IMG/VR virus record: IMGVR_UViG_3300027887_000330
DNA from: a virus
Lineage: Duplodnaviria > Heunggongvirae > Uroviricota > Caudoviricetes
Direction: 5' to 3' (one strand)
DNA length: 64,000 bases
A program made the translations under genes and the position numbers. Below, piece after piece: positions 8,446-44,143 of the stretch. The notes below the pieces were generated by a model. That model had not been told where the DNA came from, did no database searches, and saw only the letters and a program-made list of their open reading frames with translations. Position 1 is the stretch's first letter, and every line of letters begins with the position of its first letter.

Positions 8446-9108
8446 ATGTCAGGAAAGTTGGTATTACAGATCTATGAGGACGACGTACCTCTCACCCTAA
8501 TAGGAACTGCTAAAGTAATTATGGGGCTGAAGGACGAACAGATAAGGGAGGTAGCCAATTCTGCAAATGACAGAGCTCACCTCCCTAAGTATTGTAATAA
8601 CAAGGAACATCATCATTATAATGCATGCATAGGTGGAGGCATCTGTTTGGCAAAGAAGTACAAGCGTCTGTTCTCTTTTGTGGACGTGGTATGTACTACT
8701 TGCGATTCGTATGTTATAGTGGATACCTTGAATTATATGTTTAGTGAATACTATGAAGGTAAATACAGAGCTGAATGGAGAAAGACACGTAGGGACAAAC
8801 GCTCTGGCTTCACAGATAAACCGGTAAAGGCTGTTACTAAAAAGCGTGCCAAAAAACAAACCGAGACAGAGCCGATACAGGCTCCAGCCGAACTAAAAAC
8901 AGAGTCAATTACTAAGAAGGACTCCCCTAAAAAGAAAAGGGAGCGGCCACCCAAGCTGTCTATCCAGGCAACTGAAACTGGTCGTGTCTCCGGGATTACT
9001 CCCAATGAGTCCAATAAACCAAAGACATTAACCAAGGCAGTCGTAGAGAGGGGCAAGCCAAGAGTCAAACAGGGGAGACCTAAGAAGAGGACAGCGGAGG
9101 CAGCTTAA
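8446..9108 (+). CDS. Cys/His-rich protein with C-terminal AT-hook-like basic tail (DNA-binding)
   Basis: C-terminus RGKPRVKQGRPKKRT contains GRP AT-hook cores. Lys-rich tail. Confidence 0.4.
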   Translation: MSGKLVLQIYEDDVPLTLIGTAKVIMGLKDEQIREVANSANDRAHLPKYCNNKEHHHYNACIGGGICLAKKYKRLFSFVDVVCTTCDSYVIVDTLNYMFSEYYEGKYRAEWRKTRRDKRSGFTDKPVKAVTKKRAKKQTETEPIQAPAELKTESITKKDSPKKKRERPPKLSIQATETGRVSGITPNESNKPKTLTKAVVERGKPRVKQGRPKKRTAEAA

Positions 9109-10977
9109 ATGACTATGAATGCGTATCAGAAGTTTATTTTTTATCGCACGTACAGCAGATGGATTGCTGAGAAGGGCCGTCGAGAGACCTATAACGAAAC
9201 CGTAGATAGGTATCTAGACTATATATTTTCTAGAGTCCCCAACGCCGACCAGATACCTGATAAGGTGAGGCGGAAAGCAGAGAAGTATATAAAGGGCCTA
9301 AATGTAATGCCCAGTATGCGTGCTCTGTGGAGCGCCGGGGCCAATGCCGATAAGGATAATTCGGTATTTTATAATTGTTCCTTTCTAGTTGTAGATTCTC
9401 TGGAAGCTTTTGGAGAGTCTCTTTATTTGCTGGCGTGCGGTTGTGGCGTAGGTTACAGTGTACAAGCCAAGTATGTAGATGTGCTCCCTGAGATCCCAAA
9501 GCAGCAGAACATGCCTAAATTACAGTTTCTGATTCCAGATGACCGAGAAGGGTGGAAAGCTTCTCTGGACTTCGGGGTTAAGCAATGGTTCAAGGGGCGA
9601 GACGTCGCTTTTGATTACTCCTGTGTAAGGCCCGCTGGCGCGCCTCTGGTAACTTCTGGTGGTTATGCTAGTGGACCAGAGCCATTAAGACGTTGTTTGG
9701 AGTACGCAAGAGATACTATCTTGGGTGCCCAAGGTCGAAAGTTAACTACACTAGAAGTCTCTGACATAATGAATGAGATAGCCTCTGCTATAGTAGTGGG
9801 TGGGGTAAGAAGATCATCTGAGATCGCTCTCACTGATCTACGGGACGTCGACATGAAGACGTCCAAGCATGGTAATTTCCATCCTCGTAGGTTCATGGCT
9901 AATATATCAGCCGTGTACAATAAGAGGCCCGATGTGCTCACATTTGCACAAGAATTCTTTGACATGGCTAAGTCCAAGACTGGCGAGCGCGGAATGTTTA
10001 ATCTCTATGCCGCCAAGCAAAGAGCTCCGCAGCGTAGACGTAAAGGGCCGTTGGCCGGGACCAACCCGTGTGGAGAAATTGTATTAAGAAATATGTCTTT
10101 TTGTAATCTTACTGAGGTTGTTATAAGGCCCGAGGATGATGAAGATTCAGTTAGAGATAAAATAACCACAGCAGTGTGGTTGGGTGCAATGCAGTCCTGC
10201 TTTACCTACTTCCCGCAACTGCGGCCGGAGTGGGCAAAGAATTGTGAGGAAGAGAGGCTGCTAGGGGTATCTTTAACAGGGTGTGCTGACAATCTAGCCC
10301 TACTGCAGCCTGAAGTTCTTAGGATGTGGAAGAAGCACGCTCTCAAAGTATCCAGGCAAGCAGCGGATATACTAGGAATCAACTATGCTGCCGCTGTAAC
10401 TACCATAAAACCTAGCGGAACAGTCAGCCAGATGTGCGATTGTGCTTCTGGTATGCACTCTAGATGGGCTAAATATTACATCCGCAGAGTAAGGATAAGT
10501 TTGCATGATCCACTACTGCAGATGATGAAAGACCAAGGCTTTAAGGTGATCGAAGCTCCGGAGAATAATGACACCTATATACTGGAGTTCCCGATCAAGG
10601 CTCCGGAGGGCTGTAAGACAACGAGGGATGACACAGCCCACGGCCAACTGGAGTGGTACAGATCATTAGTTGAGAACTGGGCAGAACATAATGTCAGTTG
10701 CACTGTCTATGTACGTGATGACGAATGGTTGGATGTCACAAAATATGTCTATGATAATTTTGATCTCATTAATGGTGTATCTTTTTTCCCCTACGAAGAA
10801 CATAGCTACAATATGGCACCATACGAAGAGATCGACGAAGAGACATATAACAAGATGGTCACACAGATGCCTGTGTTAGATTTCAGCCAGCTCACACGCT
10901 ATGAGGATAGAGATATGACAACGGGTCACTACGAAATAGCCTGTGCTGGCAATGCTTGCGAGTTCTCTTTACAGTAA
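9109..10977 (+). CDS. Ribonucleotide reductase large subunit, class II-like (no beta subunit seen in window)
   Basis: Active-site GTNPCGEIVL motif. 622 aa without ATP cone. C-terminal CAGNAC redox tail. Confidence 0.75.
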   Translation: MTMNAYQKFIFYRTYSRWIAEKGRRETYNETVDRYLDYIFSRVPNADQIPDKVRRKAEKYIKGLNVMPSMRALWSAGANADKDNSVFYNCSFLVVDSLEAFGESLYLLACGCGVGYSVQAKYVDVLPEIPKQQNMPKLQFLIPDDREGWKASLDFGVKQWFKGRDVAFDYSCVRPAGAPLVTSGGYASGPEPLRRCLEYARDTILGAQGRKLTTLEVSDIMNEIASAIVVGGVRRSSEIALTDLRDVDMKTSKHGNFHPRRFMANISAVYNKRPDVLTFAQEFFDMAKSKTGERGMFNLYAAKQRAPQRRRKGPLAGTNPCGEIVLRNMSFCNLTEVVIRPEDDEDSVRDKITTAVWLGAMQSCFTYFPQLRPEWAKNCEEERLLGVSLTGCADNLALLQPEVLRMWKKHALKVSRQAADILGINYAAAVTTIKPSGTVSQMCDCASGMHSRWAKYYIRRVRISLHDPLLQMMKDQGFKVIEAPENNDTYILEFPIKAPEGCKTTRDDTAHGQLEWYRSLVENWAEHNVSCTVYVRDDEWLDVTKYVYDNFDLINGVSFFPYEEHSYNMAPYEEIDEETYNKMVTQMPVLDFSQLTRYEDRDMTTGHYEIACAGNACEFSLQ

Positions 10978-11154
10978 TATGGGAGATGTGATACACATAG
11001 AGGATTGGTTTGAGCGTAAGGTAAATGACTATGCTCAACGCTACCGAAAGTGTATGGGCACGTGTATAGAAAAAGAAATGAAAGAGGAGCTGCGGGCGTT
11101 AGGTATGAAGCTCGCTGATTATAAAACCTTTGTCATGAGACGGGAGGATAAAAA

Positions 11155-11898
11155 ATGATAGCAATAAAGTATGGGTGGATCAAGGATAGCCCTGACGCCC
11201 GAGACAGATTGTACAATAAACCGAGGGGGCTCAGGAGGCCTAAGAAGCAGGACCTGAGACCCGCGTGTTCTCCCATTGAGAACCAGACCACTCTAGGCTC
11301 TTGTACAGCTAACGCGGCTGTAGGGACCACGGAGTTTCTGGAGATCAAGGATAAGGTCCAGTTTATAGACTTTAGCAGACTCTACGTTTACTATAACGAA
11401 CGTGTAATGGACGGGACCGTCAACGAGGATGCTGGATCTCAACTCAGAACAGCAGCGAAGGCTATGGCCAAGTGGGGCGTGTGCAACGAAAAGAGCTGGC
11501 CCTACAATGTAGATAAATTTACTATAAAACCACCGGCCAAATGTTACACAGAGGGAGCAAAGCATAAGATAACATCCTACAGACGCTTAGGTACCCTGGA
11601 TGATATTCTTGATTGCCTAGCCGAAGGTTACCCAGTTATGTTCGGCTTTGATGTTTACTCTTGCTTGAACGAAGTGGGCGCGGACGGCCTACTAAGAATG
11701 CCCACAGAGGATGATGAATATGAAGGCGGCCACGCAGTTGTCTTTGTTGGGTATGACATGGCCAAGAAACTTCTCATAGTTAGAAACTCATGGGGAGTAG
11801 AATGGGGTGATAAGGGTTACTTCTATATGCCTTTCGACTACGTGCTTAAAGGCTTAGCTAGTGATTTCTGGACCATCAGAAAAGGAGAAAACATGTAA
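11155..11898 (+). CDS. Papain-like cysteine peptidase (C1 family)
   Basis: QTTLGSCTANAA (Gln/Cys oxyanion region), GGHAVVFVGYD (His) and VRNSWGVEWGDKGYFYM (Asn/Trp), all canonical C1 motifs. Confidence 0.75.
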   Translation: MIAIKYGWIKDSPDARDRLYNKPRGLRRPKKQDLRPACSPIENQTTLGSCTANAAVGTTEFLEIKDKVQFIDFSRLYVYYNERVMDGTVNEDAGSQLRTAAKAMAKWGVCNEKSWPYNVDKFTIKPPAKCYTEGAKHKITSYRRLGTLDDILDCLAEGYPVMFGFDVYSCLNEVGADGLLRMPTEDDEYEGGHAVVFVGYDMAKKLLIVRNSWGVEWGDKGYFYMPFDYVLKGLASDFWTIRKGENM

Positions 11899-14852: not shown

Positions 14853-15346
14853 TGAGCGAATTATGGGATGCAAGCGGAGCGGTAAAGGACACCGCAGAAG
14901 ATCTATTAGGAAAACATCACCCAGAGATAGCTACAGCATCATTTGGGTATGTATTTAAGGACAAGGCCGCGGCCGCAGAGATTGAGGCTGGGATTGTGGC
15001 GATGGCTAAAAAAGTCCCGCCTATTTACAAGCTGTTAACCAAGGATGACTTGGACTTTGTAATTGTTATAGCCAAGGACATGTTCGATGAACTAGAGCCC
15101 GAGGAGCAGGAAGCTCACCTGGACTCGGCGCTGTGCTCTTGTTCAGCAAAGCTGGATGAACACGGAGATTTCAAAGTTGATGCGGCCGGGAATCCCATCT
15201 ATTGTCTCAGGGCGTTTGACTTACAAGGACACTCCGAGGTATTAGCACGCTATGGTATAGACACCTTTGCTGAAGTGGGTGCCAGAATAAAGGCCGCTAT
15301 GGCTAAGGATAAAGACGACGAAGGGGCGGACATAGTAGAAGACTAA
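14852..15346 (+). CDS. Hypothetical acidic protein
   Basis: Start MSELWDA is coupled to the upstream small ORF. No motif. Confidence 0.45.
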   Translation: MSELWDASGAVKDTAEDLLGKHHPEIATASFGYVFKDKAAAAEIEAGIVAMAKKVPPIYKLLTKDDLDFVIVIAKDMFDELEPEEQEAHLDSALCSCSAKLDEHGDFKVDAAGNPIYCLRAFDLQGHSEVLARYGIDTFAEVGARIKAAMAKDKDDEGADIVED

Positions 15347-15358
15347 TAGGAAAGGCTT

Positions 15359-16003
15359 ATGAGTATTTTTCTCATGGAAGAAGAAAAACAATTAGAGAAA
15401 CTTAAACAAGAAGCAATAGGGTGTTATGAGTGTTCGTTTGGGCACTCATGCACCCAAAAAGTTTTTGGTGAGGGGCCTTTAGGCGGCTCTATTATGAGTA
15501 TATCTGAAGCCCCGGGCGCAGAAGAGGATGCTTCTGGAAGACCCTACATGGGTAAGGCTGGGCGTTTCTGGGAGGGGATGCTTAGGTCGGTAGGGATGGA
15601 ACGGTCAAATCTATATATCTGTAATGCCTTAAAATGCAGACCTCCCAATAATAAGATAGAAGGATTGGTAGAGCTAGATGCTTGTAAGCATTTTTTAATC
15701 AAGCAAGTAGCTATTATACAACCAAGATTAATCTTGGTGTTTGGAAAACCAGCGGCTTACGCCCTGGGGATATTGGCTCAGGCAGATTATGGGAAACCAG
15801 TAAAGACAAGATTAGGCATACAAAAGGAACCCTACAAATATGTGGGACTGGACGGGGTCCAAAGGACGGCAAGGATTATGTGGACGTATCATCCCTCTTA
15901 TTTACAGAATAAGCCGGATGGGAGAAATTACTGTTTCCAAGCTTATAAGCAGTTGTGTGATGCGAAGAAGCTTCTGGAGGCAGATTTACCGTGGGATGGA
16001 TAA
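15359..16003 (+). CDS. Uracil-DNA glycosylase, family 4 (Fe-S type)
   Basis: GEGP...SEAPGAEED...GRPYMGKAGRF motif A. HPSYL motif B. Four Cys (CYEC...C, C...C) for a 4Fe-4S cluster. Confidence 0.8.
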   Translation: MSIFLMEEEKQLEKLKQEAIGCYECSFGHSCTQKVFGEGPLGGSIMSISEAPGAEEDASGRPYMGKAGRFWEGMLRSVGMERSNLYICNALKCRPPNNKIEGLVELDACKHFLIKQVAIIQPRLILVFGKPAAYALGILAQADYGKPVKTRLGIQKEPYKYVGLDGVQRTARIMWTYHPSYLQNKPDGRNYCFQAYKQLCDAKKLLEADLPWDG

Positions 16004-23158: not shown

Positions 23159-23568
23159 TGGAATGCTTAAACTGTCCGCACTGCGGACAACTATTAACGA
23201 CTGTTGAGACTCCGGTATTTTCGAAGTGGGGGGGAGTAGAACTGAACATATGTTTAAATGATTTTTGTGATTATTTTGCACGTTCATGGAAAATGCTATC
23301 TGAACAGTCTGGCTCGTGGTTAGGTTATCGTTATTTTCATGGAGAAAATGGCCAAGAAGGACCGATAGCAGTGGCCTCCGTGGACACTTTTAAAGACTCT
23401 ACTATTACTGAAGAAGAAAAGAAATCACGCCAGCAACGTGCCTATAATCGTGAGAAAGAATTTAGAAATTTATTAGAGGCTATCTCCTCCGCAGAGGAAA
23501 AAAAAGACTTACAATTGTCTGAGTGGCTTCAAGAGCTTAGGAAATTAAAATATCCTAATAAAACCTAA
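23158..23568 (+). CDS. Zinc-ribbon protein
   Basis: CLNCPHCG...CLNDFC pairs. Last gene of the plus block. Confidence 0.45.
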   Translation: MECLNCPHCGQLLTTVETPVFSKWGGVELNICLNDFCDYFARSWKMLSEQSGSWLGYRYFHGENGQEGPIAVASVDTFKDSTITEEEKKSRQQRAYNREKEFRNLLEAISSAEEKKDLQLSEWLQELRKLKYPNKT

Positions 23569-24490
23569 GGTTTTTCTTACGTTTTAAACCTAATTTAAAA
23601 GCTCTCATCTGTATACCAGACCAGTTACGGCCAGGGAGCTTTTTCATTAGGTCCTCCCTCAACATGATATCATAATTTTTTCTAAGGAGGTCGTCTTCGT
23701 GTGGCCTCCAAATACAATTATGAATAGGTTCAGGGTTGTCTATAATTTCCTTTGCTTTGGAGTGTTTTCTATCCATATATAAATTTGATCCTTCATAGAT
23801 ATATCTTAGGAAGTGCCACGCATCCCTACCAGAGTAAGTAACACACCATGAGGTCCCTGATTGAGTCACATTATAGTTATTTGCCCATACCTGTGAAAAA
23901 CATTGGTGTACGAAGGTAATCATTTGCTTATTTCCCGTTATATTTGCCTCCGGCCTATTGTGGTTTCTACCTCCCATTCTTACACACCCGTCACCGTCAA
24001 ACAGCCCCCTGATAAAGTGTCTAGTAAGTTCCGGAGGCAAGACCGGCGGGTTTACAACTTTGGATTTTTTTGGAATTATATTATAGGATGAAAGGCTTCG
24101 TAGCAATTCTGTATTATAGATACACAGCCCTTTTTGTGCCTTAGTATTTTTATACCCTCGTTTGTAACTAATAGGCGAGTCTGGGGAAGCTAGATTACGG
24201 ATTTTTATTAGTATGTCTTCGTCAGATTCCTGTAACCACAGGTTAATAGCTCGGTGATTTATACACCCATCAGCAGACCACATCCCTAATATATACGCTT
24301 TTTCTTCTGAATCAATCTTAGAGAAATCCAAGACTACTTTTCTAGGGACTCTTTTCTGCAAGCTATGTCGACTTATTTTATTTCGAATTGCTATAATGTC
24401 CCGTCTTGGTAGTAGTTTACATAAATCAGGGCCTTCCATATTTGGATAGTTATCTTCTAAAATTTTGAGCTCCTCTTTTGACCAACGCAT
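23555..24490 (-). CDS. LAGLIDADG homing endonuclease (double-motif)
   Basis: YILGMWSADGCI and FIRGLFDGDGCV, two LAGLIDADG blocks. Confidence 0.8.
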   Translation of the reverse strand: MRWSKEELKILEDNYPNMEGPDLCKLLPRRDIIAIRNKISRHSLQKRVPRKVVLDFSKIDSEEKAYILGMWSADGCINHRAINLWLQESDEDILIKIRNLASPDSPISYKRGYKNTKAQKGLCIYNTELLRSLSSYNIIPKKSKVVNPPVLPPELTRHFIRGLFDGDGCVRMGGRNHNRPEANITGNKQMITFVHQCFSQVWANNYNVTQSGTSWCVTYSGRDAWHFLRYIYEGSNLYMDRKHSKAKEIIDNPEPIHNCIWRPHEDDLLRKNYDIMLREDLMKKLPGRNWSGIQMRAFKLGLKRKKNLRFY

Positions 24491-25295: not shown

Positions 25296-25712
25296 CTAGT
25301 TCACCAGTTCTTCTGCTATTCGCGGTGATACAAATATTCGGTGTTCTACACTGCCATTCCAGACGACATTGTAGTTCTCCTCCTTTAGACGCCGGACTAT
25401 AGTGTTACCTGCCCGAAGGCTCCCGGCTTCCGAATTGCCCAGGAACCCTATGTAAAGTCCCGACTTACCCTCGCTCATCCCCTCTTCATCTTGGATATGC
25501 CAAAATAACCCGTAGATCTTATTGGACTCGTTCATTGCTGAGCCTACCTCATAAGAGGCGCAGGTTGTACAGCAACAGTCTCCGGTTAGCATGACAAAGT
25601 CTTTCTCCAGTGGGGCTAAGGAAGCTTTAAGATTCTCCAAAAAGTATAAAACCTCTTCTCGAAAGTTCCATCTCTCCAGACTATAAGTATTTTCTTCTGC
25701 TAATTGAGCCAT
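25296..25712 (-). CDS. Acidic protein related to the central domain of the MFYR paralog family (lacks the conserved N-terminus)
   Basis: GLYIGFLGNSEAGS parallels YLTIGFPTVS and FYLCIGFPHIG in array members. Directly abuts the array. Confidence 0.5.
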   Translation of the reverse strand: MAQLAEENTYSLERWNFREEVLYFLENLKASLAPLEKDFVMLTGDCCCTTCASYEVGSAMNESNKIYGLFWHIQDEEGMSEGKSGLYIGFLGNSEAGSLRAGNTIVRRLKEENYNVVWNGSVEHRIFVSPRIAEELVN

Positions 25713-25719
25713 GTATTTC

Positions 25720-26070
25720 CTATCCGTATGAGTACGAAAACACCCAGCCGGGACTTGTTGAGGGCGTTATGTTGTATTTCCTTAGTGTTGCAAGAAGAGA
25801 AGTATTCCACTCTATTTTCTTGAGTTGATTATCTTCAACGAACTGCACGAAGTCTTCGTCTGAGTAACGGGCTATTAAGATTACCAGAGCCGGTTCATTC
25901 TCATCGTGTATAAAATGAGGGCTCTCTTCGTTTCCCCAGGAATAGGTATCGTAAAGTGCATCTCTTTGATCCTCTGAGAGACAGTGTAGATCCTCTTTTG
26001 TTAGTCGATACCCCCATCCAATGTATGAACTAGAACTCGAATTGGTTACAAATTTAGATCGGTAAATCAT
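25720..26070 (-). CDS. MFYR-family paralog 1 (start at MIYRSKFVTNSSSSS)
   Basis: Conserved N-terminus and C-terminal SPGWVF motif. The track ORF extends 8 codons upstream. Confidence 0.6.
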   Translation of the reverse strand: MIYRSKFVTNSSSSSYIGWGYRLTKEDLHCLSEDQRDALYDTYSWGNEESPHFIHDENEPALVILIARYSDEDFVQFVEDNQLKKIEWNTSLLATLRKYNITPSTSPGWVFSYSYG

Positions 26071-26414
26071 GATGCGTGGTGTGTGAAGAACCATCCAGGA
26101 CTCAGACCTTCAGTGTCTAAGCCTAGGTTTTTACATTGCTCCTGTATTGCTTCTGCCCATTCAGGTTTTACTGAGTCCCCGAATGTGTTGATGCAGATGG
26201 TTCCGTAGTAGTCGTCCAAGTCTTGGTAGGACTCTGAGATGTAAACTAGGTAGTTGTCATCGTCTGAGCAGCCTTCTACTATCTTGTCTCCGTCGTAGAG
26301 TTTGTCAAAGAAGTCATCTGGCTTCTCTCTTAGTCTATTCTCAGGGATAACTATACCCCAAGCTACGAATGAAGTGGTGCTCGAATTGGTTATAAATTTG
26401 CTGCGGTAGAACAT
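26067..26414 (-). CDS. MFYR-family paralog 2 (start MFYRSKFITNSSTTSF)
   Basis: Start ATG overlaps the stop of the upstream paralog (TGATG). C-terminal SPGWFF. Confidence 0.6.
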   Translation of the reverse strand: MFYRSKFITNSSTTSFVAWGIVIPENRLREKPDDFFDKLYDGDKIVEGCSDDDNYLVYISESYQDLDDYYGTICINTFGDSVKPEWAEAIQEQCKNLGLDTEGLSPGWFFTHHAS

Positions 26415-26728
26415 CAGCCGTCGTACCATCCGTCTTCGATGTAACCTATGGTATCATCCACATTGTTCCTCTTGGCCCATGCTTCCAGGGCTTTGTACTT
26501 TTCCTGCAGTTCATTGGCGGGGCCAAAGACTATCATTCCTTCTTTGTCTATGCTCACCGTCGGAAAGCCAATAGTGAGATACACCACGTCTCCGGGTGTC
26601 CAGTATTCCTGTATTCCTTCTGGTAGCCCCTCTTCAATTTTATCAAATGTTCCTCGGTGAACCTCTATTCCAAACGCTACCAAAGATGTGCTGCTTGAAT
26701 TCGTTACGAATAATTTCCTGTAAAACAT
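26414..26728 (-). CDS. MFYR-family paralog 3 (MFYRKLFVTNSSSTSL)
   Basis: Conserved N-terminus. C-terminal EDGWYDG. Confidence 0.6.
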   Translation of the reverse strand: MFYRKLFVTNSSSTSLVAFGIEVHRGTFDKIEEGLPEGIQEYWTPGDVVYLTIGFPTVSIDKEGMIVFGPANELQEKYKALEAWAKRNNVDDTIGYIEDGWYDG

Positions 26729-27180
26729 TAGCTATACCAGTTGTCCTCCACTATCTGTATTTGTTCGTCAAGGCCCACTCCCACAATTATGTCCATGAGC
26801 TCTTGGTAACCATCCACCAACGCTTGGTCATCATGTATGAAAGTAACGCCCGTTTCTGTTATGCCTATGTGAGGAAAACCTATACACAGGTAAAACCGAT
26901 CCCCGTCGGGGGGAAGTTCCATGTAGACTGTCCCTGTAGGAAGCACAGCCTCCAGGAATTCATAGTCCATATCGTTTTCTTCCAGATACTTTCCAGGGTC
27001 TCCCAGAAAAGCATCGGAATCCACGTTGGGCCAACTATTAATTATTTCCAAAGCCTTAGCAGTATTCTTTTCTACATAATAGGTGCAGATGTCTACCATC
27101 GTTCCCCGGTCCAGTTCTATTCCAAAGGCTATGAACGAGCTCGAACTTGAGTTTGTTACAAATTTTTGTCGGTAAAACAA
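26728..27180 (-). CDS. MFYR-family paralog 4 (MFYRQKFVTNSSSSSF)
   Basis: Conserved N-terminus. C-terminal EDNWYS. Strongly acidic. Confidence 0.6.
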   Translation of the reverse strand: MFYRQKFVTNSSSSSFIAFGIELDRGTMVDICTYYVEKNTAKALEIINSWPNVDSDAFLGDPGKYLEENDMDYEFLEAVLPTGTVYMELPPDGDRFYLCIGFPHIGITETGVTFIHDDQALVDGYQELMDIIVGVGLDEQIQIVEDNWYS

Positions 27181-27435
27181 TTACCACTCCTTGTTTTCTA
27201 CCATCCTAACAATTTCCTCTACAGGAAGCTGCTTGTGGTCTTTGTAATCCTGTATTGCTCCCTCAATTTCATTTGTTATCCTGACGAGATCTGGTGTCAA
27301 GTGCTGTCCGTCATCATCCTCGTAGTTAGCGGCACAACGTATAAGGCGGCGGGCTTCTTTCAAGGATTTCAGGGCATCCAGTATCACGTAGGAACTTGAA
27401 CTTGAGTTCGTTATATGTTTTGGTCGATAAAGCAT
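27181..27435 (-). CDS. MFYR-family paralog 5 (start MLYRPKHITNSSSSSY)
   Basis: Internal Met gives the conserved N-terminus. The track ORF has a 17-codon upstream extension. Confidence 0.5.
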   Translation of the reverse strand: MLYRPKHITNSSSSSYVILDALKSLKEARRLIRCAANYEDDDGQHLTPDLVRITNEIEGAIQDYKDHKQLPVEEIVRMVENKEW

Positions 27436-27436
27436 C

Positions 27437-27784
27437 TTAATGTCCTGAGTTATAGAATCCCCAAGCAGGGCTGTCGTCCATGTCAAAGCCGTACTTGGTA
27501 ACTGCTTTCTTTAACTCTGTTAAAGCCGCCACTTCGTCAATTTCTTTGTGCCCAATAGGTTGCCAAATCCCATACTCGAACGCAGGTAACTCTGACGCCT
27601 TGATATAAAACAAAGCGGAGCCCTCATCCATGTATGTCCTGGCTATACCCACAGGGCCATCTTCATATATATCTGCTTCTGCTAGTTCATCATACCTTTT
27701 AGGATCATTCGCTCGGGCGTAAACTCCGTAGGCTATGAAACAAGTCGATGAGCTGTTCGTCACAAACTTTGCTCGGTAATACAT
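27437..27784 (-). CDS. MFYR-family paralog 6 (MYYRAKFVTNSSSTCF)
   Basis: Conserved N-terminus. C-terminal SPAWGF. Confidence 0.6.
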   Translation of the reverse strand: MYYRAKFVTNSSSTCFIAYGVYARANDPKRYDELAEADIYEDGPVGIARTYMDEGSALFYIKASELPAFEYGIWQPIGHKEIDEVAALTELKKAVTKYGFDMDDSPAWGFYNSGH

Positions 27785-28215
27785 TAAGTCCTCACATCAA
27801 TCGCTACTCTCCAAGCGGGTTCAGCTGTGCTGTCCCCATAAGCAGTAGCGGTAATTCCGTACTCCAGACAGAAGAGTTTTATTTTGTGCATCCACTCTTC
27901 TTCTTTTGCCTTGCTTTCTTGTAGGTGATCTATAGGGAGATCATCTACGCTGCCCTCTAGGGACCAATATGAATTATTGATATAGGCCATGCCGCTTTGG
28001 CAGTCAGGATCTATGTATAATCCTATGTCTCCCTTTAAGGTCTCTGCCCAGTCCCATAGTATTTGAGACTGATCTTCCCACGTAGCTTTGGTGAGCTCTT
28101 CCGGCGGGATTATTTTTTCTAGTATATTATTAGCTGAGTCTTCATCAAAATTAATTCCAAAGAAAATGAAACTCGTTGAAGAAGAGTTCGTTACGAACTT
28201 TTGTCTGTAAAACAA
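27784..28215 (-). CDS. MFYR-family paralog 7 (MFYRQKFVTNSSSTSF)
   Basis: Conserved N-terminus. C-terminal EPAWRVAI. Confidence 0.6.
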   Translation of the reverse strand: MFYRQKFVTNSSSTSFIFFGINFDEDSANNILEKIIPPEELTKATWEDQSQILWDWAETLKGDIGLYIDPDCQSGMAYINNSYWSLEGSVDDLPIDHLQESKAKEEEWMHKIKLFCLEYGITATAYGDSTAEPAWRVAIDVRT

Positions 28216-28605
28216 TTAGCGCTCCACGTGTATGGCTATCTGCCACGATGGCGTATGATAGGGGAGACCTTGGTTGTCACAAAGCTCCTTGATTGCCTGA
28301 TTCCATTCTTTATTCTTATCACGAGAAAATAATTTAAGTAAAATCTGGACCGGAAGAGCTTCGACTCCGCTTTCATCGAGGCCAATGTAGCTTTCTTTGG
28401 CATAAACCATAGCTCTTTCGACTTCCCAGCAATGATGTAGTCCCGCTGTAGACTCTTTATCACAGTCAAGCCTATAGGCTAGGTCTTGTAAAGACTCTCC
28501 TCCAGAGAATGATTCTCGCTCTACATCTTTTGTTCTGAATTCTATCCCATAAAAGATGAAACTCGTTGATGAACTGTTAGTTACAAATTTAGTCCTTAGG
28601 AACAT
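28216..28605 (-). CDS. MFYR-family paralog 8 (MFLRTKFVTNSSSTSF)
   Basis: Conserved N-terminus. C-terminal TPSWQIAI. Confidence 0.6.
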   Translation of the reverse strand: MFLRTKFVTNSSSTSFIFYGIEFRTKDVERESFSGGESLQDLAYRLDCDKESTAGLHHCWEVERAMVYAKESYIGLDESGVEALPVQILLKLFSRDKNKEWNQAIKELCDNQGLPYHTPSWQIAIHVER

Positions 28606-28855
28606 CCAGTTTGCCTTCTTCCATGCATGTTTTCAATTCTTGTTCGTCCGTAATGGCCCGCCCCCCGGCGGTAGTAAACACATACCCACATTCACATGCG
28701 ATGTGACTTATGTATGCGTCATTCAGAAAAGTCTCCAGATCTCCATATTCTATTTCTCCGTCTTCGTCGAAGCTGATGGTCTCAGCCTCCTCCACACCTT
28801 TATAGAGCTTATAAAACTCGTCGCTACCACACCTGGGGCACTCATAAATGCTCAT
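28589..28855 (-). CDS. Small zinc-ribbon protein
   Basis: CPRCGS...CECGY pairs. 88 aa. Confidence 0.4.
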   Translation of the reverse strand: MSIYECPRCGSDEFYKLYKGVEEAETISFDEDGEIEYGDLETFLNDAYISHIACECGYVFTTAGGRAITDEQELKTCMEEGKLDVPKD

Positions 28856-29123
28856 TCAGCAACCCCATGCTTTCCATGTCATCTAGCTCGGCGGCTATAC
28901 CGTCGAGGTCATCCCCGAAATACTCTCGGGCTATCTGCATCATCTCTGCCCTTATGGGCCGTTCCTCGGGTGCTTTTTCTCCCATGCCACAACAGGGACA
29001 ACCCTCCCCGTTTAGGAAGGCTGTCCCGTATGATCCCAACTCGTGTAGGCTACTGAGATCCCAGGATTCCCCACACTTTTGACAATAGATGTCCATCATT
29101 CTCCTTGTCCAATTGCCGCTCAC
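28842..29123 (-). CDS. Small Cys-rich zinc-binding protein
   Basis: CQKCGE...CPCCGMGE. 93 aa. Confidence 0.4.
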   Translation of the reverse strand: MSGNWTRRMMDIYCQKCGESWDLSSLHELGSYGTAFLNGEGCPCCGMGEKAPEERPIRAEMMQIAREYFGDDLDGIAAELDDMESMGLLNEHL

Positions 29124-29314
29124 GCCGCCCTCCCAATAACCTTATGGTTTATAGGAAATCTGCGGCAATTTTTTCCAGAGACAACATCATATTCCCACTG
29201 ATAGCCGCATACCGGGCAGTCATACAGATAGGCAGTAGGCCCATAACCCGCTGTCCTCCAAAATTTGAGTTCGCCCGCTGACCCACAATAAAAGCACTCG
29301 TTTTTTTTATCCAT
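29120..29314 (-). CDS. Small zinc-ribbon protein
   Basis: CFYCGS...CPVCGY. 64 aa. Confidence 0.4.
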   Translation of the reverse strand: MDKKNECFYCGSAGELKFWRTAGYGPTAYLYDCPVCGYQWEYDVVSGKNCRRFPINHKVIGRAA

Positions 29315-34051: not shown

Positions 34052-34390
34052 TCAACCGCGCTCAAACTTACGTGTCTTTTCTTCCTTGGGCTTAAGTTCC
34101 TTACGCAGGTATTTGAGGGCCTTTTCAGGCATCATGGAGGGCATACAAGTGTAGACATCGAGTGATATGTAGTCATGTTCTGGACTATAATGAGCGCTCA
34201 TGTGCGATTCTGCGAGCATCACGATAGCTGTTGCACCCTGTGGCTCGAATTGGTGTCCCATATAATCGAGCACCTTACAGCCTGCAATCTTAGCCGTGTC
34301 TAACAACAGAGCTACCAAATCATACTCGTTGCTTATCCTCTCCGGATCGCAACCATACCAGTCTAGTAGTAGGTGTGTCCCCTTTTCCAT
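34052..34390 (-). CDS. speD: Pyruvoyl-dependent S-adenosylmethionine decarboxylase proenzyme (SpeD/SpeH type; the pyruvoyl arginine decarboxylase relative is not excluded)
   Basis: HLLLDWYGCD...LAESHMSAHYSPEHDYISLDVYTC matches the class 1 AdoMetDC core, including the ES self-cleavage site. Confidence 0.75.
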   Translation of the reverse strand: MEKGTHLLLDWYGCDPERISNEYDLVALLLDTAKIAGCKVLDYMGHQFEPQGATAIVMLAESHMSAHYSPEHDYISLDVYTCMPSMMPEKALKYLRKELKPKEEKTRKFERG

Positions 34391-36730: not shown

Positions 36731-37258
36731 TTAGTGGTGATTCATGGTGACTACACCACCAACACCTTTCTTTTCCAGTATGTTCACACTACCTGAGTGA
36801 TAGTCCATCGCGGAGGCGTAGGACCCTGAGTCGTCAGCATACTCAATGTGGACAATACGATAGCCGCGTTTTACGGCACCCAGTAATTTAGAATATGCTC
36901 TGATCCTCTGCTTTGTGTAGTAGCTAAAGCCGTGTTTTTCTCCTCGATCTTTAATAAGCCACTTCACCTCTTCTAAGATGCTGGCCCGGAGGCCGGGGAT
37001 ACTAAATTCCTCTAACCGTTCTTTGAAGTGGGGAGAGTTCGAGGCCTCCAGTTTGGCCATGGCTTCTTTGTCTTCTTGTTCTGTCCGGAGGAAATCCCTC
37101 AGTAAATTAAGGCTGTCTATTTTGAACCCGTCATCAGCAAAGATAGGTGTTAGGCCGATCTCGTCAAAGAATTCGTGGCTGATGTTTTGATTCTGTGGGA
37201 TAAAGAAATAGTAGCCTGAGCTTGAGGAATTGGTTACAAATTTAGGTCTGTAGAACAT
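36731..37258 (-). CDS. MFYR-family paralog 9 (start MFYRPKFVTNSSSSGY)
   Basis: Internal Met restores the conserved N-terminus. The same 45-nt DNA block sits at the start. Confidence 0.55.
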   Translation of the reverse strand: MFYRPKFVTNSSSSGYYFFIPQNQNISHEFFDEIGLTPIFADDGFKIDSLNLLRDFLRTEQEDKEAMAKLEASNSPHFKERLEEFSIPGLRASILEEVKWLIKDRGEKHGFSYYTKQRIRAYSKLLGAVKRGYRIVHIEYADDSGSYASAMDYHSGSVNILEKKGVGGVVTMNHH

Positions 37259-37268
37259 CACTTTATCC

Positions 37269-37592
37269 TTAACACTGGAATGAATACCAGCCAGAACTGT
37301 CTGTGCCGTATTCGATTTCATCTTCAGCGAAGTGACCTAAATATTCTATATCGTAGAAAATGGCACAACCCTTTCCAATTTTATCTCTCACTACAGCCTG
37401 TGCTCCTTCGTCCATATAATCGTCCAGCTCCTCTGCGGTTCCTCCAGTAAATATGGACTCTCCACAATGAGGGCATCTGAGATTACCGGGACTGTAATTC
37501 TTCATCTCCGTGGGGTAATTTTCAGGGTCTTTCTCCCATATTATCATACAGGAGGAGGAGGAGTTTGTCACAAATTTAGGTCTGTAATGCAT
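37269..37592 (-). CDS. MFYR-family paralog 10 (MHYRPKFVTNSSSSCM)
   Basis: Conserved N-terminus. C-terminal SSGWYSF. Contains CPHCGE. Confidence 0.55.
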   Translation of the reverse strand: MHYRPKFVTNSSSSCMIIWEKDPENYPTEMKNYSPGNLRCPHCGESIFTGGTAEELDDYMDEGAQAVVRDKIGKGCAIFYDIEYLGHFAEDEIEYGTDSSGWYSFQC

Positions 37593-37787
37593 GTTACTCC
37601 CCTATCATAGCTAAAATTTCTTCCGCGATCTCTTTCTTTCCCACAAGAACCCACTCCGCGATTCTTTTATGCTCACGACTGGTGTAGAGATCCATGCCGC
37701 CCAATTCTAAGTCTCGGGCGGCAAGGCATAGTTCCCTAACCCTGTCAAGCACTACTACGTTCGTGTGATCAGGGCTCAGGACCATGG

Positions 37788-38126
37788 TTAATCTCTCACG
37801 AACTGGCTTCGGTTCTCGAAGTGGTCAAACTCCCGCACCTGGTCAATGTAGTAGGTGCCCGCGGGCAGGGTGATGGTATTGTGCTCCTCGTGGGAGATGG
37901 TGCACGGCTCAGTGAGTTCGAAAACTATCATGTTGTTGCTGGCCTGCTTCGGAACAAACTTCACAATCTTGCCACGGATCACGTGGGAATGTCCTGTGGT
38001 TTCCCCTTGTGCAACAACCAGCTCTCCGACATCCTGTTTGTCCCTCTTCATCGCTTCTTCGCGCTGCCAATGCGGTAATTCGCTTACCGGCTTAATTAGT
38101 ACGTCGCCTTGTTGAAAATAATTCAC
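37788..38126 (-). CDS. Hypothetical protein
   Basis: 112-aa ORF. Confidence 0.4.
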   Translation of the reverse strand: MNYFQQGDVLIKPVSELPHWQREEAMKRDKQDVGELVVAQGETTGHSHVIRGKIVKFVPKQASNNMIVFELTEPCTISHEEHNTITLPAGTYYIDQVREFDHFENRSQFVRD

Positions 38127-38138
38127 TGCTTTGTCTCC

Positions 38139-39272
38139 TTAGGTCAATATAATAGGGACAGCATTGGTACCATTTCTGTATTCCAAAGCTGCCGCTACGG
38201 TAGTGGTCCTTGGTTCCACGCCCTCGATGTGCCAGGTTCCAGTGGACGGGTTTAACATTTTCAGATAGGGCCGATTTCGGTTAGCATCAATCGCCAGATT
38301 GACTAACTCATACTTGCCGTCGTCGCTCTTGTCTAGGAGGGTGGCCCCTAATTCTGCAAGTACCCTCTCAATTCCTATCTTTCTGACTAGCTCGCGCCGG
38401 ATCTCAGCGTTTCTAGTTTTTGTGATCATTTCGGCCTTCAGCTTTTCGGCTGGGGTAACAACGACCTGCTTCGATACCCGAACGTCATTCATGCAGTAGA
38501 TGCCCGACTTCAGTTTAGGAAAGTAAATTGCCGGGCCGTCCTCGCGGTGTAGGAAGTTCCTGCTGTCTATGTGTAGAACAGGTTTTTCCACCAGGATCAG
38601 CTTGTTGTTTATGAACAGGATCGAATACAAGTTCAAGGCTATTGTCTCACAGGCCTTGATGTATTTCAAAGTTGTCTTGGCGTCCTCGACATAGTACTTG
38701 CCAAGGGCATAGACCTTCGGGTAGTTCGCTACCCTAAGGGGCAGAACCGATCTGGAGTAGTAATTACGGGTTCTCCAGTCGGTTACGATAGGGGATTTCT
38801 TGTTCAGGTTGTACATCTTCCCAGAGATGGTCTTGGCCTGATTGACTAGTCTATTCACCCGTCCTATATAAAGCTGGGTGATGACCCCGATGTCGAGGAA
38901 AGTATCAAGGAGCTCTTGTGGCGGCTTTGGCTCCGCCCAGTAACCGAATAGGCCTGAGTGTAGAAGACTGTTGACAGTGGAAAGTTTGTTAGTAACTCCC
39001 CAATGAGCCTTATAATAGCTGGACATTTGTTCAGCTAGTGTAGCCTCTCCTACCTTTGCTGGCTCAAGGTCTTTGGTTTTGAGCTCCGAAAGCCATAGTA
39101 ATTTAGGCTTCTTGGGAACTACAGCGATGTCTGCCACAACCGTGCGAACAGCTTTAAACACATCCGATTCGCTGTCCGTCTTATCCCCGATCAGCCGCCC
39201 CTTGAAAAATAAGGCTTGATCCTGAATTTCCTTCATCAATACTTTGTCTTTAGGGTCTAATTTTACATCCAT
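38139..39272 (-). CDS. Hypothetical protein coupled to the radical SAM gene
   Basis: 377 aa. Start overlaps the stop of the radical SAM gene. Confidence 0.5.
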   Translation of the reverse strand: MDVKLDPKDKVLMKEIQDQALFFKGRLIGDKTDSESDVFKAVRTVVADIAVVPKKPKLLWLSELKTKDLEPAKVGEATLAEQMSSYYKAHWGVTNKLSTVNSLLHSGLFGYWAEPKPPQELLDTFLDIGVITQLYIGRVNRLVNQAKTISGKMYNLNKKSPIVTDWRTRNYYSRSVLPLRVANYPKVYALGKYYVEDAKTTLKYIKACETIALNLYSILFINNKLILVEKPVLHIDSRNFLHREDGPAIYFPKLKSGIYCMNDVRVSKQVVVTPAEKLKAEMITKTRNAEIRRELVRKIGIERVLAELGATLLDKSDDGKYELVNLAIDANRNRPYLKMLNPSTGTWHIEGVEPRTTTVAAALEYRNGTNAVPIILT

Positions 39273-40312
39273 TAAATCGTTCGCTCCGTTTTTTCACATG
39301 GGTTTATGCCAGGCAACACATGACAACTATGACATAGGTCGTTAACATCACAGCCTGGGCACGCCGTGGTCACTTTTTCTCGGTAAGGTTGGAGTTTCTC
39401 TTTCCATATCTCCTCAAAAGAGTGGTCATGTAAACTAAACTTGTCTTTGAGATTGAAAGAGCAGGGAGATACGGTGAGATCCTCCCCAACAAACACGCTG
39501 AAGCAACCACTGTCACAAGGTCCGAGTGTATATCTCGGAAGGTCTTGGCGGGGCACAATGGACATAAGGGAGGGTGAAAAGCAACTATCAATTCCTACGC
39601 TTACCTTTCCCTTATAATTCCTCAGGGATTTTACAAACCTGAGTTTCTGGTCTCGATGGGGATGCTGTTCCCAGCTCCCCCGCCCGATGGGTTTGTGCAT
39701 CAAACAGATACACGAATACAGAGGGTATTTCCCGCCGAACAAACCCTCTCCCTGTGCTGCTATGTCTAGTTCGTGGCCCCACTCATCAATGTGTGCCTTG
39801 TCTAAAACGACATGGATAGCGGGCTCTATCCCTGCCTCTAGCAGCCGTTCAACCTCCTTTAACGCCGTCCGTCTGTTGTGCATCGAAATTGCTACAGCTC
39901 CAGCATAGCGTTTGGTAGCCTCTAGTATCTCGTCTGTCATGTCTACGCCATTTGAAGTGTAGCTGGGCGGTATTCCTTTGTCATGAGCGATCCTCAGGAT
40001 CTCGATGAATTCGGGGTGGTGCTGCGGGCTGCCGCCCCCAATTGCAACTTGAAGAACGTGAGGACTCATAGCGTCTAATACTGCCGCGAAATCCGACGGA
40101 CTCATGTGGTGACTCTTACTAGGGTCGCTCTCCCTGTAACAATACTCACAGTTAAGAGGACAATAGTCAGTAATATGAATGTCCGCTAGCTCCGGACCGT
40201 GCAGAGAAAATTTTGGATCTGAATAACCGGGTTTTTCCTTCCTTAAGAACTCTCCTGTTTCCACATCGAAAAAAACCACATAAGTTCCGTAATCAATGAC
40301 TTTGATTGGCAT
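39272..40312 (-). CDS. Radical SAM enzyme with C-terminal SPASM-like auxiliary Fe-S domain
   Basis: CPLNCEYC (CxxxCxxC) near the N-terminus. C-terminal CFSVFVGEDLTVSPC then CPGCDVNDLCHSC then C fits the SPASM pattern. Confidence 0.7.
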   Translation of the reverse strand: MPIKVIDYGTYVVFFDVETGEFLRKEKPGYSDPKFSLHGPELADIHITDYCPLNCEYCYRESDPSKSHHMSPSDFAAVLDAMSPHVLQVAIGGGSPQHHPEFIEILRIAHDKGIPPSYTSNGVDMTDEILEATKRYAGAVAISMHNRRTALKEVERLLEAGIEPAIHVVLDKAHIDEWGHELDIAAQGEGLFGGKYPLYSCICLMHKPIGRGSWEQHPHRDQKLRFVKSLRNYKGKVSVGIDSCFSPSLMSIVPRQDLPRYTLGPCDSGCFSVFVGEDLTVSPCSFNLKDKFSLHDHSFEEIWKEKLQPYREKVTTACPGCDVNDLCHSCHVLPGINPCEKTERTI

Positions 40313-42739: not shown

Positions 42740-44143
42740 TTACTCTTCCAGTTCTATGAGGTATGTTACTGTGCATTGCTCCAATTTGTAGACAATGAAT
42801 TCGTCGTTGTATAGGCTGCCCAGTCGTGCGAGGGCAGAAATACTGTGGTAACCTGACGGGGCACCCTGTGTTTTGGAGGAGCCCACCTCATAGGTTTTAC
42901 CCATAGCGAATTTACATCTCAAAAGGAACGTGTTTTTGAATGTGTTTCTCCTACCAGACCATCCCCCTACGCTGTAGTTTAATGACTTAGTAGATGAATT
43001 AGCGCCATAGATACCATTCCCAAACATTCTCCCGGTGACGTGCCCGGCAGAAACCGGAGGTATAATGAGGCCGCCCAGCATGATGCTGAGTAAATTAGCG
43101 TTCTGAGATCCGTGAAAGAATTCTTGTGTGTTTCCATATTTGGCTTCGGCCTTTTCGTACCTTTCCCGCTCCTTCCCAATCTTTATTATGTAGGCGTTCT
43201 TTACTTTCCACCTATCCAGATGGGCGTGTTTCTTTGTTCCGTTAACCGTATCCACCAAGTCTTTGTAGACTTTTGTTTTCTTGTCTATAGGCTCTATGTC
43301 AGTTTCGAATCCGCTGAACTGCTTAGAGGCATTGGTATTGGTAGTCATACCCATCTTTACGGACGCCTCTAGCTGGTCTAGCAAGTCATATTCTTCAGCG
43401 AGTTTAACATCGGTTATGATCCAGTCGTCTCTCGTTATTTTTCTTCCAAACTGATGGGGGATCTTACTGTAATAGAAGTTATTACTCATCCGGGTGATTT
43501 CTTTGTCCGGATCTATCTGGCCATCCTCAGACATCATATCCTTCAGATCATTCAGCGCCCGTCGAGCGTCATTAACCGTGTTAATGGTTACTGGCCCCAG
43601 CGCGGTCTCAAGTCCGTTTGCGGTAAGCGTGATGCTGGAGAGTGACGTAACTTTATGTATGTTTTCTTGTGCGAACTGCTCGATCAGCCGCTGGACATCT
43701 GGGTCAAATCTAGACGCTTCGTTAATTATCTCCTTGGCAGAAAGTTGAGTTGCTACGTCTTTAGTTGCCTTGCCCCTTACGTTAGGGGAACCTACTGTAG
43801 GACTAACCAACTCTACTAACTCATAATTCTCTCGGCGTGAAGACCCATCTTCTTCTTTTATGTTCTTTCCCTTGAGCTTCTTCTTAACTATGGAATCAAA
43901 TTCACTCTCCGCATTATAGAGAGCAGGCCATGGCCCGCGCTCGTCATAGACGCTGCTGGTATTTATTCTCCCATAGTGTGTAAAAAGTCTGTAATTCCCT
44001 GAGGCCGGGTCATGCTGTATCTCTATGGAGTAGAACTTATTATTATTCCCCTCGATATTTCCACAGCATAAAACCGTATGCTTAATTGTTTCTGTATAAG
44101 GACCGGGGCTGTCATCATACAGTTTCGTTGCTTTTACTGCCAT
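42740..44143 (-). CDS. Poly(ADP-ribose) polymerase homolog (WGR domain, helical domain and PARP catalytic domain)
   Basis: N-terminal WGR-like FYSIEIQHDPASGNYRLFTHYGRIN. Catalytic FHGSQNANLLSIMLGGLIIPP...VTGRMFGNGIYGANSSTKSLNY...YNDEFIVY aligns with the PARP1 H-G-S, G-I-Y and YNEYIVY blocks, giving an apparently intact H-Y-E triad. Confidence 0.8.
   Translation of the reverse strand: MAVKATKLYDDSPGPYTETIKHTVLCCGNIEGNNNKFYSIEIQHDPASGNYRLFTHYGRINTSSVYDERGPWPALYNAESEFDSIVKKKLKGKNIKEEDGSSRRENYELVELVSPTVGSPNVRGKATKDVATQLSAKEIINEASRFDPDVQRLIEQFAQENIHKVTSLSSITLTANGLETALGPVTINTVNDARRALNDLKDMMSEDGQIDPDKEITRMSNNFYYSKIPHQFGRKITRDDWIITDVKLAEEYDLLDQLEASVKMGMTTNTNASKQFSGFETDIEPIDKKTKVYKDLVDTVNGTKKHAHLDRWKVKNAYIIKIGKERERYEKAEAKYGNTQEFFHGSQNANLLSIMLGGLIIPPVSAGHVTGRMFGNGIYGANSSTKSLNYSVGGWSGRRNTFKNTFLLRCKFAMGKTYEVGSSKTQGAPSGYHSISALARLGSLYNDEFIVYKLEQCTVTYLIELEE

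Follow-up and report, generated by a model that had tools for sequence, protein, structure and literature searches.

Why should ten small and divergent phage proteins begin with the same 16-residue peptide, and what ties them to a radical S-adenosylmethionine (SAM, or AdoMet) enzyme encoded nearby? The question is raised by a stretch of 64,000 nucleotides from a virus of the Caudoviricetes (IMG/VR record IMGVR_UViG_3300027887_000330), called here, over its whole length, ‘the window’. On its minus strand, the genes 37592..37269 and 37258..36731 (paralogs 10 and 9) have in common the start motif M-x-Y-R-P-K-F-V-T-N-S-S-S-S, hereafter the ‘tag’. Eight further members form a head-to-tail array at 28605..25720, 8.1 kb off, as established by a six-frame motif scan and the listing of open reading frames (ORFs). 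The enzyme, which carries a SPASM-type C-terminal domain, is encoded on the same strand (40312..39272), its gene ending 1,680 bp upstream of paralog 10. Two tagged ORFs thus lie where a first-pass annotation of the window had placed them, with the radical SAM/SPASM gene at the 1.7 kb it had reported. The analysis presented here indicates that the enzyme and the tagged gene families are, in all likelihood, functional partners. The reading retained, with a probability of roughly 0.6, is that they form a two-component enzyme–substrate system.

Linkage of enzyme and tag in phages

Seven phage loci fetched via family members (L001–L006 and L009) all hold the enzyme gene, either adjoining tagged arrays or inside them. 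Gene order in L001 and L002 is that of the window. In the 381-kb contig L003, the array comprises ~20 genes, with ~17 members upstream of the enzyme and 2 downstream, while in L004 and L005 members stand on either side of the enzyme, one of them overlapping its stop codon. The order in L006 is member, ClpP, a 95-residue gene product and enzyme, and the 312-kb contig L009 has a distant enzyme with at least 11 members after it. Phage loci selected through the enzyme (L007, L011 at 36% identity, and L222) have members 4–400 bp away. A scan of IMG/VR with a DNA pattern of the tag extended this sample to 120 contig fragments of 1–15 kb each (~1.0 Mb in total). An enzyme homolog (E<1e-15) is present in 33 of them, and the 17 full-length homologs aligned share 23–31% identity with the window enzyme. 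In 33/33 of the enzyme-bearing fragments, enzyme and nearest member lie on the same strand, at a median gap of ~280 bp, the member being downstream in 29/33.

Synteny in related phages, proposed earlier as a check on the pairing, is conserved: the enzyme adjoins or sits inside tagged arrays in every related phage contig read, and no locus with enough context retains the paralog family without the enzyme. Neighbour clustering over the phage loci brought out no third recurrent family (protease, recognition element or transporter).

Some phage loci have features of their own. A ClpP-like gene followed by a short gene lies directly upstream of the enzyme in three related contigs, namely L006 (889-1521) and those of P0190 and P0193; the short gene encodes 95 residues in L006 and 64–65 in the other two, and the arrangement is absent from the window and from cellular cassettes. 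ClpP could provide an optional processing step. Inside the tagged array of L009 stand tag-less paralogs (9356-9736 and 10906-11244), one of which starts MLTIWGIE, at the first strand. The array of L003 is interrupted and flanked by two oppositely oriented TnpB (OrfB_IS605) genes (8740-9699 and 14858-15961).

Linkage in bacteria and archaea

The pair is not confined to phages. In the species set of GTDB, 317 loci carry enzyme homologs, the cellular homologs being 31–38% identical to the window enzyme, and these loci span Bacteroidota, Alpha-, Gamma- and Delta-proteobacteria, Firmicutes, Planctomycetes, Acidobacteria, Cyanobacteria, Chloroflexi and Micrarchaeota. A census was made of the best 80 of the 317, 78 of which have readable upstream sequence. 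In 77 of these 78, a tagged protein is encoded directly upstream of the enzyme on the same strand; in the one exceptional locus, the member lies 2.5 kb downstream. The two genes are 0–4 bp apart in nearly all cases, with start and stop codons overlapping or 4 bp apart. Cellular tagged proteins comprise 124–165 residues (mostly 130–140) and start MKI[KR]xDFV[TS]NSSSTSF. Three of three metagenomic loci selected through the enzyme, one from a Thorarchaeota metagenome-assembled genome, likewise have the tagged protein directly upstream. The association of enzyme and tag is therefore nearly obligate, at the level of the operon, in different domains of life, and persists at 23–38% enzyme identity.

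These data bear on an account in which the tag is a phage localisation signal and its proximity to the enzyme reflects the shared ancestry of a variable region. The loci of T4 internal proteins, which are directed to the capsid by a targeting sequence, encode small, divergent proteins in tandem that have a single N-terminal peptide conserved among them, and the array of the window resembles them. However, 77/78 evaluable loci of bacteria and archaea, where there is no virion context, contain the tag–enzyme pair, the association survives rearrangement as well as deep divergence of the enzyme, and the tag has no Glu-type site for a prohead protease. A localisation signal is thus a very improbable explanation.

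In cells, the usual cassette consists of four overlapping genes, for an Avs2-like STAND protein, an untagged paralog, the tagged protein and the enzyme. The STAND protein (~880 residues) has a SMEK/restriction endonuclease-type N-terminus and an Avs2-like STAND nucleoside triphosphatase (NTPase) core, and aligns with Avs2 models only to about position 660–710 of ~1,500. PADLOC Avs2 models and SMEK_N match in the cellular relatives. The untagged paralog has no NSSS segment, as seen in Cellulophaga, where it reads MKLSYDFYKS......LLLI and its tagged neighbour MKIRYDFVTNSSSTSFVIIS. RefSeq labels the four proteins ‘SMEK domain-containing’, ‘hypothetical’, ‘hypothetical’ and ‘radical SAM’. Another order is seen in L138, with the tagged protein, the enzyme and an Avs2-like protein of 1306 residues. 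Cassettes often stand beside other defence genes, for example Septu-like PDC-M62 and GmrSD. As to the other end of the tagged proteins, cellular members mostly have Trp as the very last residue (...DGW-COOH) and phage paralogs have a Trp 2–8 residues from the end; the subgroup of L138 and L154 keeps tag and enzyme and has lost the terminal Trp.

This make-up recalls the KpAvs2 operon, composed of the Avs2 STAND NTPase, the radical SAM protein Avap1 and the small protein Avap2 (Béchon et al. 2024, Nat Commun 15:9860, PMC11564622).

The N-terminal tag

The ten window paralogs align with an overall identity of 22–36% and share M1, R4, T9, N10, S11 and S12 without exception; their length varies between 84 and 175 residues and no Cys is conserved. 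The pattern [FYH][VI][ST]N[ST][ST][ST] occurs 10 times in the six-frame translation of the window, whereas 200 shuffles yielded 0.035 occurrences on average and never more than 1. The first-pass annotation had seen in these gene starts a shared block of DNA, a view that had to be abandoned: Ser and Arg codons differ freely among the ten starts, so the tag is conserved as a peptide and not as a DNA block, and the same free variation of synonymous codons rules out a DNA or RNA element at the gene starts.

The tag is also strictly N-terminal. Of 304 members from viral fragments, 303 have a start codon as the first codon of the tag; in window paralogs 2 and 5 this codon is TTG. For paralog 9, the ORF extends upstream to an ATG at 37321, and MFYRPKFVTNSSSSGY begins only at codon 22 of that ORF. 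Since the orthologs P0031, P0033 and P0034 on other contigs begin exactly at the tag methionine, the true start is taken to be this residue (37258); the longer version would overlap paralog 10, whose own orthologs are P0006, P0022, P0027, P0032 and P0036. Two tags per predicted protein are found in P0081, P0099, P0115 and P0163, with the inner tag still after Met-Lys; these proteins may represent fused neighbour genes or readthrough of a stop codon by the gene caller, possibly at recoded stops in large phages.

Across the family, the general consensus is M-x-x-R-x-x-F-V-[T/S]-N-S-S-S-x-S-F, and that of the wider family MKIRxGFVSNSSSSSF. F7-V8-[S/T]9 is conserved at 93–99%, with F and S/T each at ~99% in members from viral fragments. 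The subtype of the tag follows the clade of the enzyme, being x-Y-R-x-K-F-V-T in the window clade, K-I-R-x-G-F-V-S in other viral fragments and K-I-[KR]-x-D-F-V-T in cells. When the profiles of the phage and cellular tagged families are compared, the match (97.8% probability) is confined to the first 37 columns, and the tag is by this measure a module common to bodies that are otherwise unrelated or unrecognisably diverged. The AlphaFold2 model of the 129-residue paralog 1 has a predicted local distance difference test (pLDDT) score of 84 and a predicted TM-score of 0.77, with a confident alpha/beta fold from residue 13. Mean pLDDT is 48 over residues 1–10 and stays below 50 over residues 6–11, so that residues 1–11 are the least confident yet the most conserved. 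The tag is accordingly predicted to be flexible.

Could the tag be part of an ordinary fold? In flavodoxin-like folds, phosphate is bound by Ser/Thr-rich loops behind the N-terminal strand. By analogy, the tag would be a Ser-rich loop binding a ligand or phosphate after strand 1, the enzyme would make the bound ligand or cofactor, and the linkage would be metabolic. The confident alpha/beta domain of the family model agrees with such a loop. However, the motif precedes the first modelled strand and is modelled with low confidence; the tag is all that phage and cellular partners have in common, their bodies differing, and hence no shared pocket is conserved; and tag-less paralogs exist beside tagged ones. 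This makes the loop quite improbable.

The family is large and has escaped annotation. Scans with Pfam, NCBIfam and PADLOC gave no model match for the window members tested, and the sole PHROG match (phrog_7397 with paralog 10, E=0.0057) is marginal. A word-indexed search found only 37 metagenomic relatives. When the profile was run in full against 1.84 billion representatives, 2,632 proteins scored E<=1e-3, forming ~2,600 clusters at 50% identity; the match begins at residue 1 in nearly all of the best 150 of these 2,632. Family members checked in RefSeq are labelled ‘hypothetical’. GenBank phages contain no nucleotide match to the locus, and tblastn with two family members found none among them either, a weak negative given that the low-complexity filter may mask the tag. 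Full-text searches of the literature returned no description of the tag, the tagged family or the phage arrays. Against BFVD, the paralog 1 model gave borderline fold matches (E ~1e-3 to 0.3) in uncharacterised proteins of Pithovirus, Klosneuvirus, Clandestinovirus, Bacillus phage Moonbeam and Sinorhizobium phage phiM12; judged by these model-based matches, the family might reach into giant viruses.

The radical SAM/SPASM enzyme

Pfam Radical_SAM (PF04055) matches the 346-residue enzyme with E=1.5e-15 and 58.2 bits, against a cut-off of 29.5. Its cysteines are C51/C55/C58 and, towards the C-terminus, C244, C266, C284, C318-x2-C321-x5-C327-x2-C330 and C339. Six close orthologs (57–87% identical) keep 12 cysteines, and C51-x3-C55-x2-C58 is invariant among them. 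Over 25 orthologs, down to 23% identity, C51/C55/C58 are conserved at 92–100%, C244, C266, C284 and C330 in 25/25, C321 and C327 in 72%, and C318 and C339 in ~40%. Measured against the auxiliary-cluster type CX2CX5CX3C, the window enzyme has every cysteine, spaced CX2CX5CX2C. Twitch domains bind one auxiliary Fe–S cluster and SPASM domains two; this conservation fits one such cluster in every ortholog, with an additional one in the window clade. The SPASM model TIGR04085 scores 32.5 bits on the bacterial ortholog L162, above its cut-off of 27, and Pfam SPASM (PF13186) is recorded for the homologs P0197, P0198, P0201 and P0202. From its motifs and cysteines, the enzyme is assigned a radical SAM core followed by a SPASM-type auxiliary-cluster domain.

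The AlphaFold2 model of the enzyme (pLDDT 93.7) supports this assignment. Its closest solved folds in Foldseek are SuiB (3.6e-14), SkfB, PqqE and CteB, with query-normalised TM values of 0.57–0.71 and E between 1e-11 and 4e-14; further matches are EpeE and, at 2e-8 and ~17% identity, anSMEcpe, while viperins match the core only. The best NCBIfam matches (MftC, NirJ2, WgkB, PqqE and AlbA) are all far under their family cut-offs. Only ~45 residues, forming a beta hairpin, precede the cluster motif, and the enzyme therefore has no RiPP-recognition-element (RRE) domain, RiPP standing for ribosomally synthesised and post-translationally modified peptide.

The match of viperins to the core speaks for an account in which the tag is a docking peptide. 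The tagged proteins would then be interchangeable adaptors or regulatory subunits that add a strand to the enzyme and gate its action on another substrate, be it a nucleotide, a small molecule or a protein. The adjacency data fit such docking equally well, and the small accessory Avap2 of KpAvs2 works by binding another protein, the STAND NTPase. Against it, ten to twenty divergent subunits per enzyme would be unusual for a stoichiometric partner, and the invariant residues are small and polar (N-S-S) together with a Phe, in a segment predicted to be flexible. The nearest folds over the full length are, moreover, peptide-modifying SPASM/twitch enzymes, and Avap1 makes no viperin-like nucleotide products and has no nucleoside triphosphate (NTP) pocket (PMC11564622). 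Docking is, on balance, unlikely.

A proposed enzyme–substrate system

How, then, would an enzyme–substrate pair operate? The enzyme would recognise the exposed N-terminal tag of each newly made paralog, and its 5′-deoxyadenosyl radical would abstract a hydrogen within the tag. The ensuing covalent change could be a cross-link or an oxidation, with F7-x-[S/T]9 and N10-S11-S12 as candidate sites, the electron being taken up by at least one auxiliary Fe–S cluster. A single enzyme would serve many substrates (ten in the window and about twenty in one relative), and the biological activity would reside in the variable folded body and require the matured tag. One enzyme for many substrates is the most economical reading given the near-obligate association, the flexible N-terminal tag conserved as a peptide, the existence of a tag-deleted paralog, the kinship with SPASM/twitch enzymes that modify peptides or proteins, and the ten to twenty partners per enzyme. 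We infer that the tag is the substrate site, and its covalent modification by the enzyme is probable; any specific chemistry, taken singly, is rather unlikely at best.

Several observations weigh against this proposal. Gene adjacency alone cannot separate a substrate from a binding partner. The eight-gene array of the window lies 10.7 kb from the enzyme, and two thirds of the tag-selected viral fragments have no enzyme within the fragment, although these are uninformative rather than contrary because they are short and the genomes hold several arrays. A T4-like Pseudotevenvirus radical SAM gene (25% identity) has no tagged gene within 8 kb; such T4-like genes are ruled out as members of the system on this ground. 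On the side of the enzyme, TIGR04085 gives the window protein 18.3 bits, under the curated cut-off, and PF13186 does not match it. Lastly, Avap1 is the one Avs2-linked radical SAM protein studied by experiment, and its accessory partner is Avap2; in the first 133–134 residues of the two, which were translated from a preprint plasmid table, the partial Avap2 has no detectable hidden Markov model (HMM) or profile–profile similarity to the tagged family, so that this partial sequence does not match as a member of the family.

What the phage copies do is most plausibly linked to defence or counter-defence, because the cellular pair belongs to Avs2-like STAND operons; roles of the arrays in anti-defence mimicry, inter-phage conflict or host takeover are speculation. 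A more ambitious version, tentative and rather unlikely as it stands, is that of an undescribed immune module of bacteria and archaea, in which a short Avs2-like STAND NTPase would be controlled or armed by the matured N-terminus of the small protein, acting as a pair with the untagged paralog. Large phages would have captured the maturase and expanded the tagged proteins into fast-diversifying arrays of ten to twenty copies, as mimics or inhibitors of these host systems or as weapons against competing phages. If true, it would be the first case of a radical SAM post-translational modification as the shared currency of a defence/counter-defence pair, and would bring new protein-level chemistry at an N-terminal F-x-S/T-N-S-S motif.

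Even without this extension, a large protein family that Pfam, NCBIfam, PHROGs and PADLOC do not cover becomes recognisable by its strictly N-terminal 16-residue tag and acquires a near-obligate radical SAM/SPASM partner. The two make a candidate enzyme–substrate pair, probably with new chemistry on whole proteins, tied to Avs2-like STAND defence operons of many bacterial phyla and some archaea. Radical SAM/SPASM-dependent protein maturation, in a new form, is probably at work here, with an unexpected tie to Avs2-like immunity. Large phages with the same maturase and up to ~twenty candidate substrates point to its use in defence and counter-defence.

Features and other genes of the window

The features of the system are collected in Table 1, together with examples of the cellular cassette.

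Table 1. Coordinates of the enzyme, the tagged genes, the intervening genes and selected cellular cassettes (window positions unless a locus is named).
Feature	Coordinates	Strand	Remarks
Radical SAM enzyme, SPASM-type C-terminal domain	39272..40312	-	346 residues; PF04055, cysteine pattern, AlphaFold2, Foldseek
DUF6745 protein	38139-39272	-	377 residues; overlaps enzyme stop codon (ATGA); kept only in closest relatives L001, L002
phrog_27831 gene	37788-38126	-	Between enzyme and paralog 10
63-residue gene product	37594-37785	-	Between enzyme and paralog 10
Tagged paralog 10	37269..37592	-	107 residues; starts MHYRPKFVTNSSSSCM; CxxC insert; ORF; family HMM E=3e-22
Paralog 10, 16-residue N-terminal tag	37545..37592	-	Ten-paralog alignment; synonymous sites vary
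Tagged paralog 9	36731..37258	-	175 residues; starts MFYRPKFVTNSSSSGY; family HMM E=3e-22
Paralog 9, 16-residue N-terminal tag	37211..37258	-	Ten-paralog alignment; synonymous sites vary freely
Tagged paralog 1 (array)	28216..28605	-	129 residues; MFLRTKFVTNSSSTSF; AlphaFold2 model
Tagged paralog 2	27784..28215	-	143 residues; TTG start
Tagged paralog 3	27437..27784	-	115 residues
Tagged paralog 4	27181..27435	-	84 residues; MLYRPKHITNSSSSSY
Tagged paralog 5	26728..27180	-	150 residues; TTG start
Tagged paralog 6	26414..26728	-	104 residues
Tagged paralog 7	26067..26414	-	115 residues
Tagged paralog 8	25720..26070	-	116 residues
Four-gene cassette, L211	4554-9002		Avs2-like, untagged paralog, tagged protein, enzyme
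Four-gene cassette, L152	4511-9041		Same order
Four-gene cassette, L221	2583-7035		Same order; A. tumefaciens Ach5 pAt

Three tightly packed co-directional genes (37594..39272, minus strand) separate the enzyme from paralogs 9 and 10. Their conservation is limited to the closest relatives, and they count as context outside the enzyme–tag pair. A scan for promoters and terminators from the enzyme to paralogs 9 and 10 gave no signal above chance. Around the array, three small CxxC zinc-ribbon-like proteins (28589-29314, minus strand) precede it and a DUF6891 protein (25296-25712, minus strand) follows.

Genes are oriented on the minus strand from ~24.5 kb onward, and a LAGLIDADG-type homing endonuclease (23555-24490, minus strand) lies at this boundary, where gene orientation and GC skew flip. 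An AdoMet decarboxylase homolog (34052-34390, minus strand; PF02675, E=2e-31) is present in all close relatives, so that a radical SAM enzyme and a SAM decarboxylase stand in the same gene block. Also on the minus strand are a PARP-like protein (42740-44143) with WGR, PARP regulatory and PARP catalytic domains, conserved in related contigs, and a Ro60-like TROVE domain fused to a VWA domain (60793-62235).

Comparison with known systems

The first-pass annotation had compared the tag with a RiPP leader, and the comparison stands in part, though not in the strict sense of a RiPP. The fold of the enzyme resembles those of maturases, its link with the tag is exceptionally tight for a gene-neighbourhood association and, as for SuiB, SkfB, PqqE and CteB, a conserved (here putative) recognition sequence is carried by variable (here putative) substrates. 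On the other hand, the system has no RRE or PqqD-like domain or partner, no leader protease and no exporter, and the partners are not short precursors but proteins of 84–175 residues, with a confident fold (AlphaFold2, paralog 1) and no conserved protease adjoining. The T4 internal proteins differ as well, since the tag has no Glu cleavage motif and is also found in 77/78 evaluable cellular operons.

Closer in the nature of the substrate are anSME/AtsB with sulfatases and QhpD with QhpC, which have in common with the present pair the SPASM architecture, the absence of a recognition element and a whole protein as the substrate or, here, the candidate substrate. The CX2CX5CX2C motif of the enzyme and its flanking cysteines parallel the Aux I/Aux II ligands of anSME (PDB 4K36). 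The tag is Ser-rich, and anSME oxidises Ser Cβ (PMC10114670). The substrate motif of anSME, (C/S)-x-(P/A)-x-R, is nevertheless absent from the tag consensus, and, unlike in anSME, the candidate site is at the extreme N-terminus and many substrates would depend on one enzyme; identity is only ~17%.

The triceptide maturases of the FxsB type offer another parallel. In the literature compared here, these enzymes install cyclophanes on FxSxx peptides, and the tag segment F7-V8-[S/T]9-N10-S11 corresponds to FxSxx and contains the aromatic-x-X3 motif. In addition, STAND/AP-ATPase conflict systems are associated with modules of FxSxx peptide and radical SAM/SPASM enzyme (Kaur et al. 2020, PMC7159879). 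In contrast with the free peptide C-terminus FxSxx-COOH, however, the motif of the tag occupies residues 7–11 of folded proteins. No HExxH peptidase co-occurs with the pair in phage or cellular neighbourhoods, and the FxsB, XyeB and GrrM families are absent from the best 25 NCBIfam matches of the enzyme. The resemblance is taken as a lead only.

The closest described system is KpAvs2; the cellular relatives L138, L211, L152 and L221 share its make-up, and its accessory proteins lack an explanation so far. Defence against phage T2, though not against SECphi18, requires Avap1, Avap2 binds KpAvs2 and its gene could not be deleted, and ~5% of Avs2 homologs have Avap accessory genes; Béchon et al. 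report no phage copies, arrays or enzyme–substrate proposal (PMC11564622). Over its first 133 residues, N-terminal hairpin included, Avap1 can be aligned with the enzyme profile at 35.5 bits. Unlike the tagged family, Avap2 starts MKIWNGYGSEHSMNLVLIG, without the NSSS tag. Pfam DUF6375 matched no tagged protein in HMM scans or precomputed records; the link of Avap2 to DUF6375 rests on HHpred, which is more sensitive than the HMM scans used here. Nor does the window encode a STAND protein, its largest ORF (676 residues) being a ClpB-like protein. As far as these sequences indicate, the KpAvs2 operon is an analogue and may be a distant sister, without demonstrable identity to the present system. 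The pair described here nonetheless suggests a possible reason why a radical SAM accessory protein is required in some Avs2 systems, the question left by Béchon et al.

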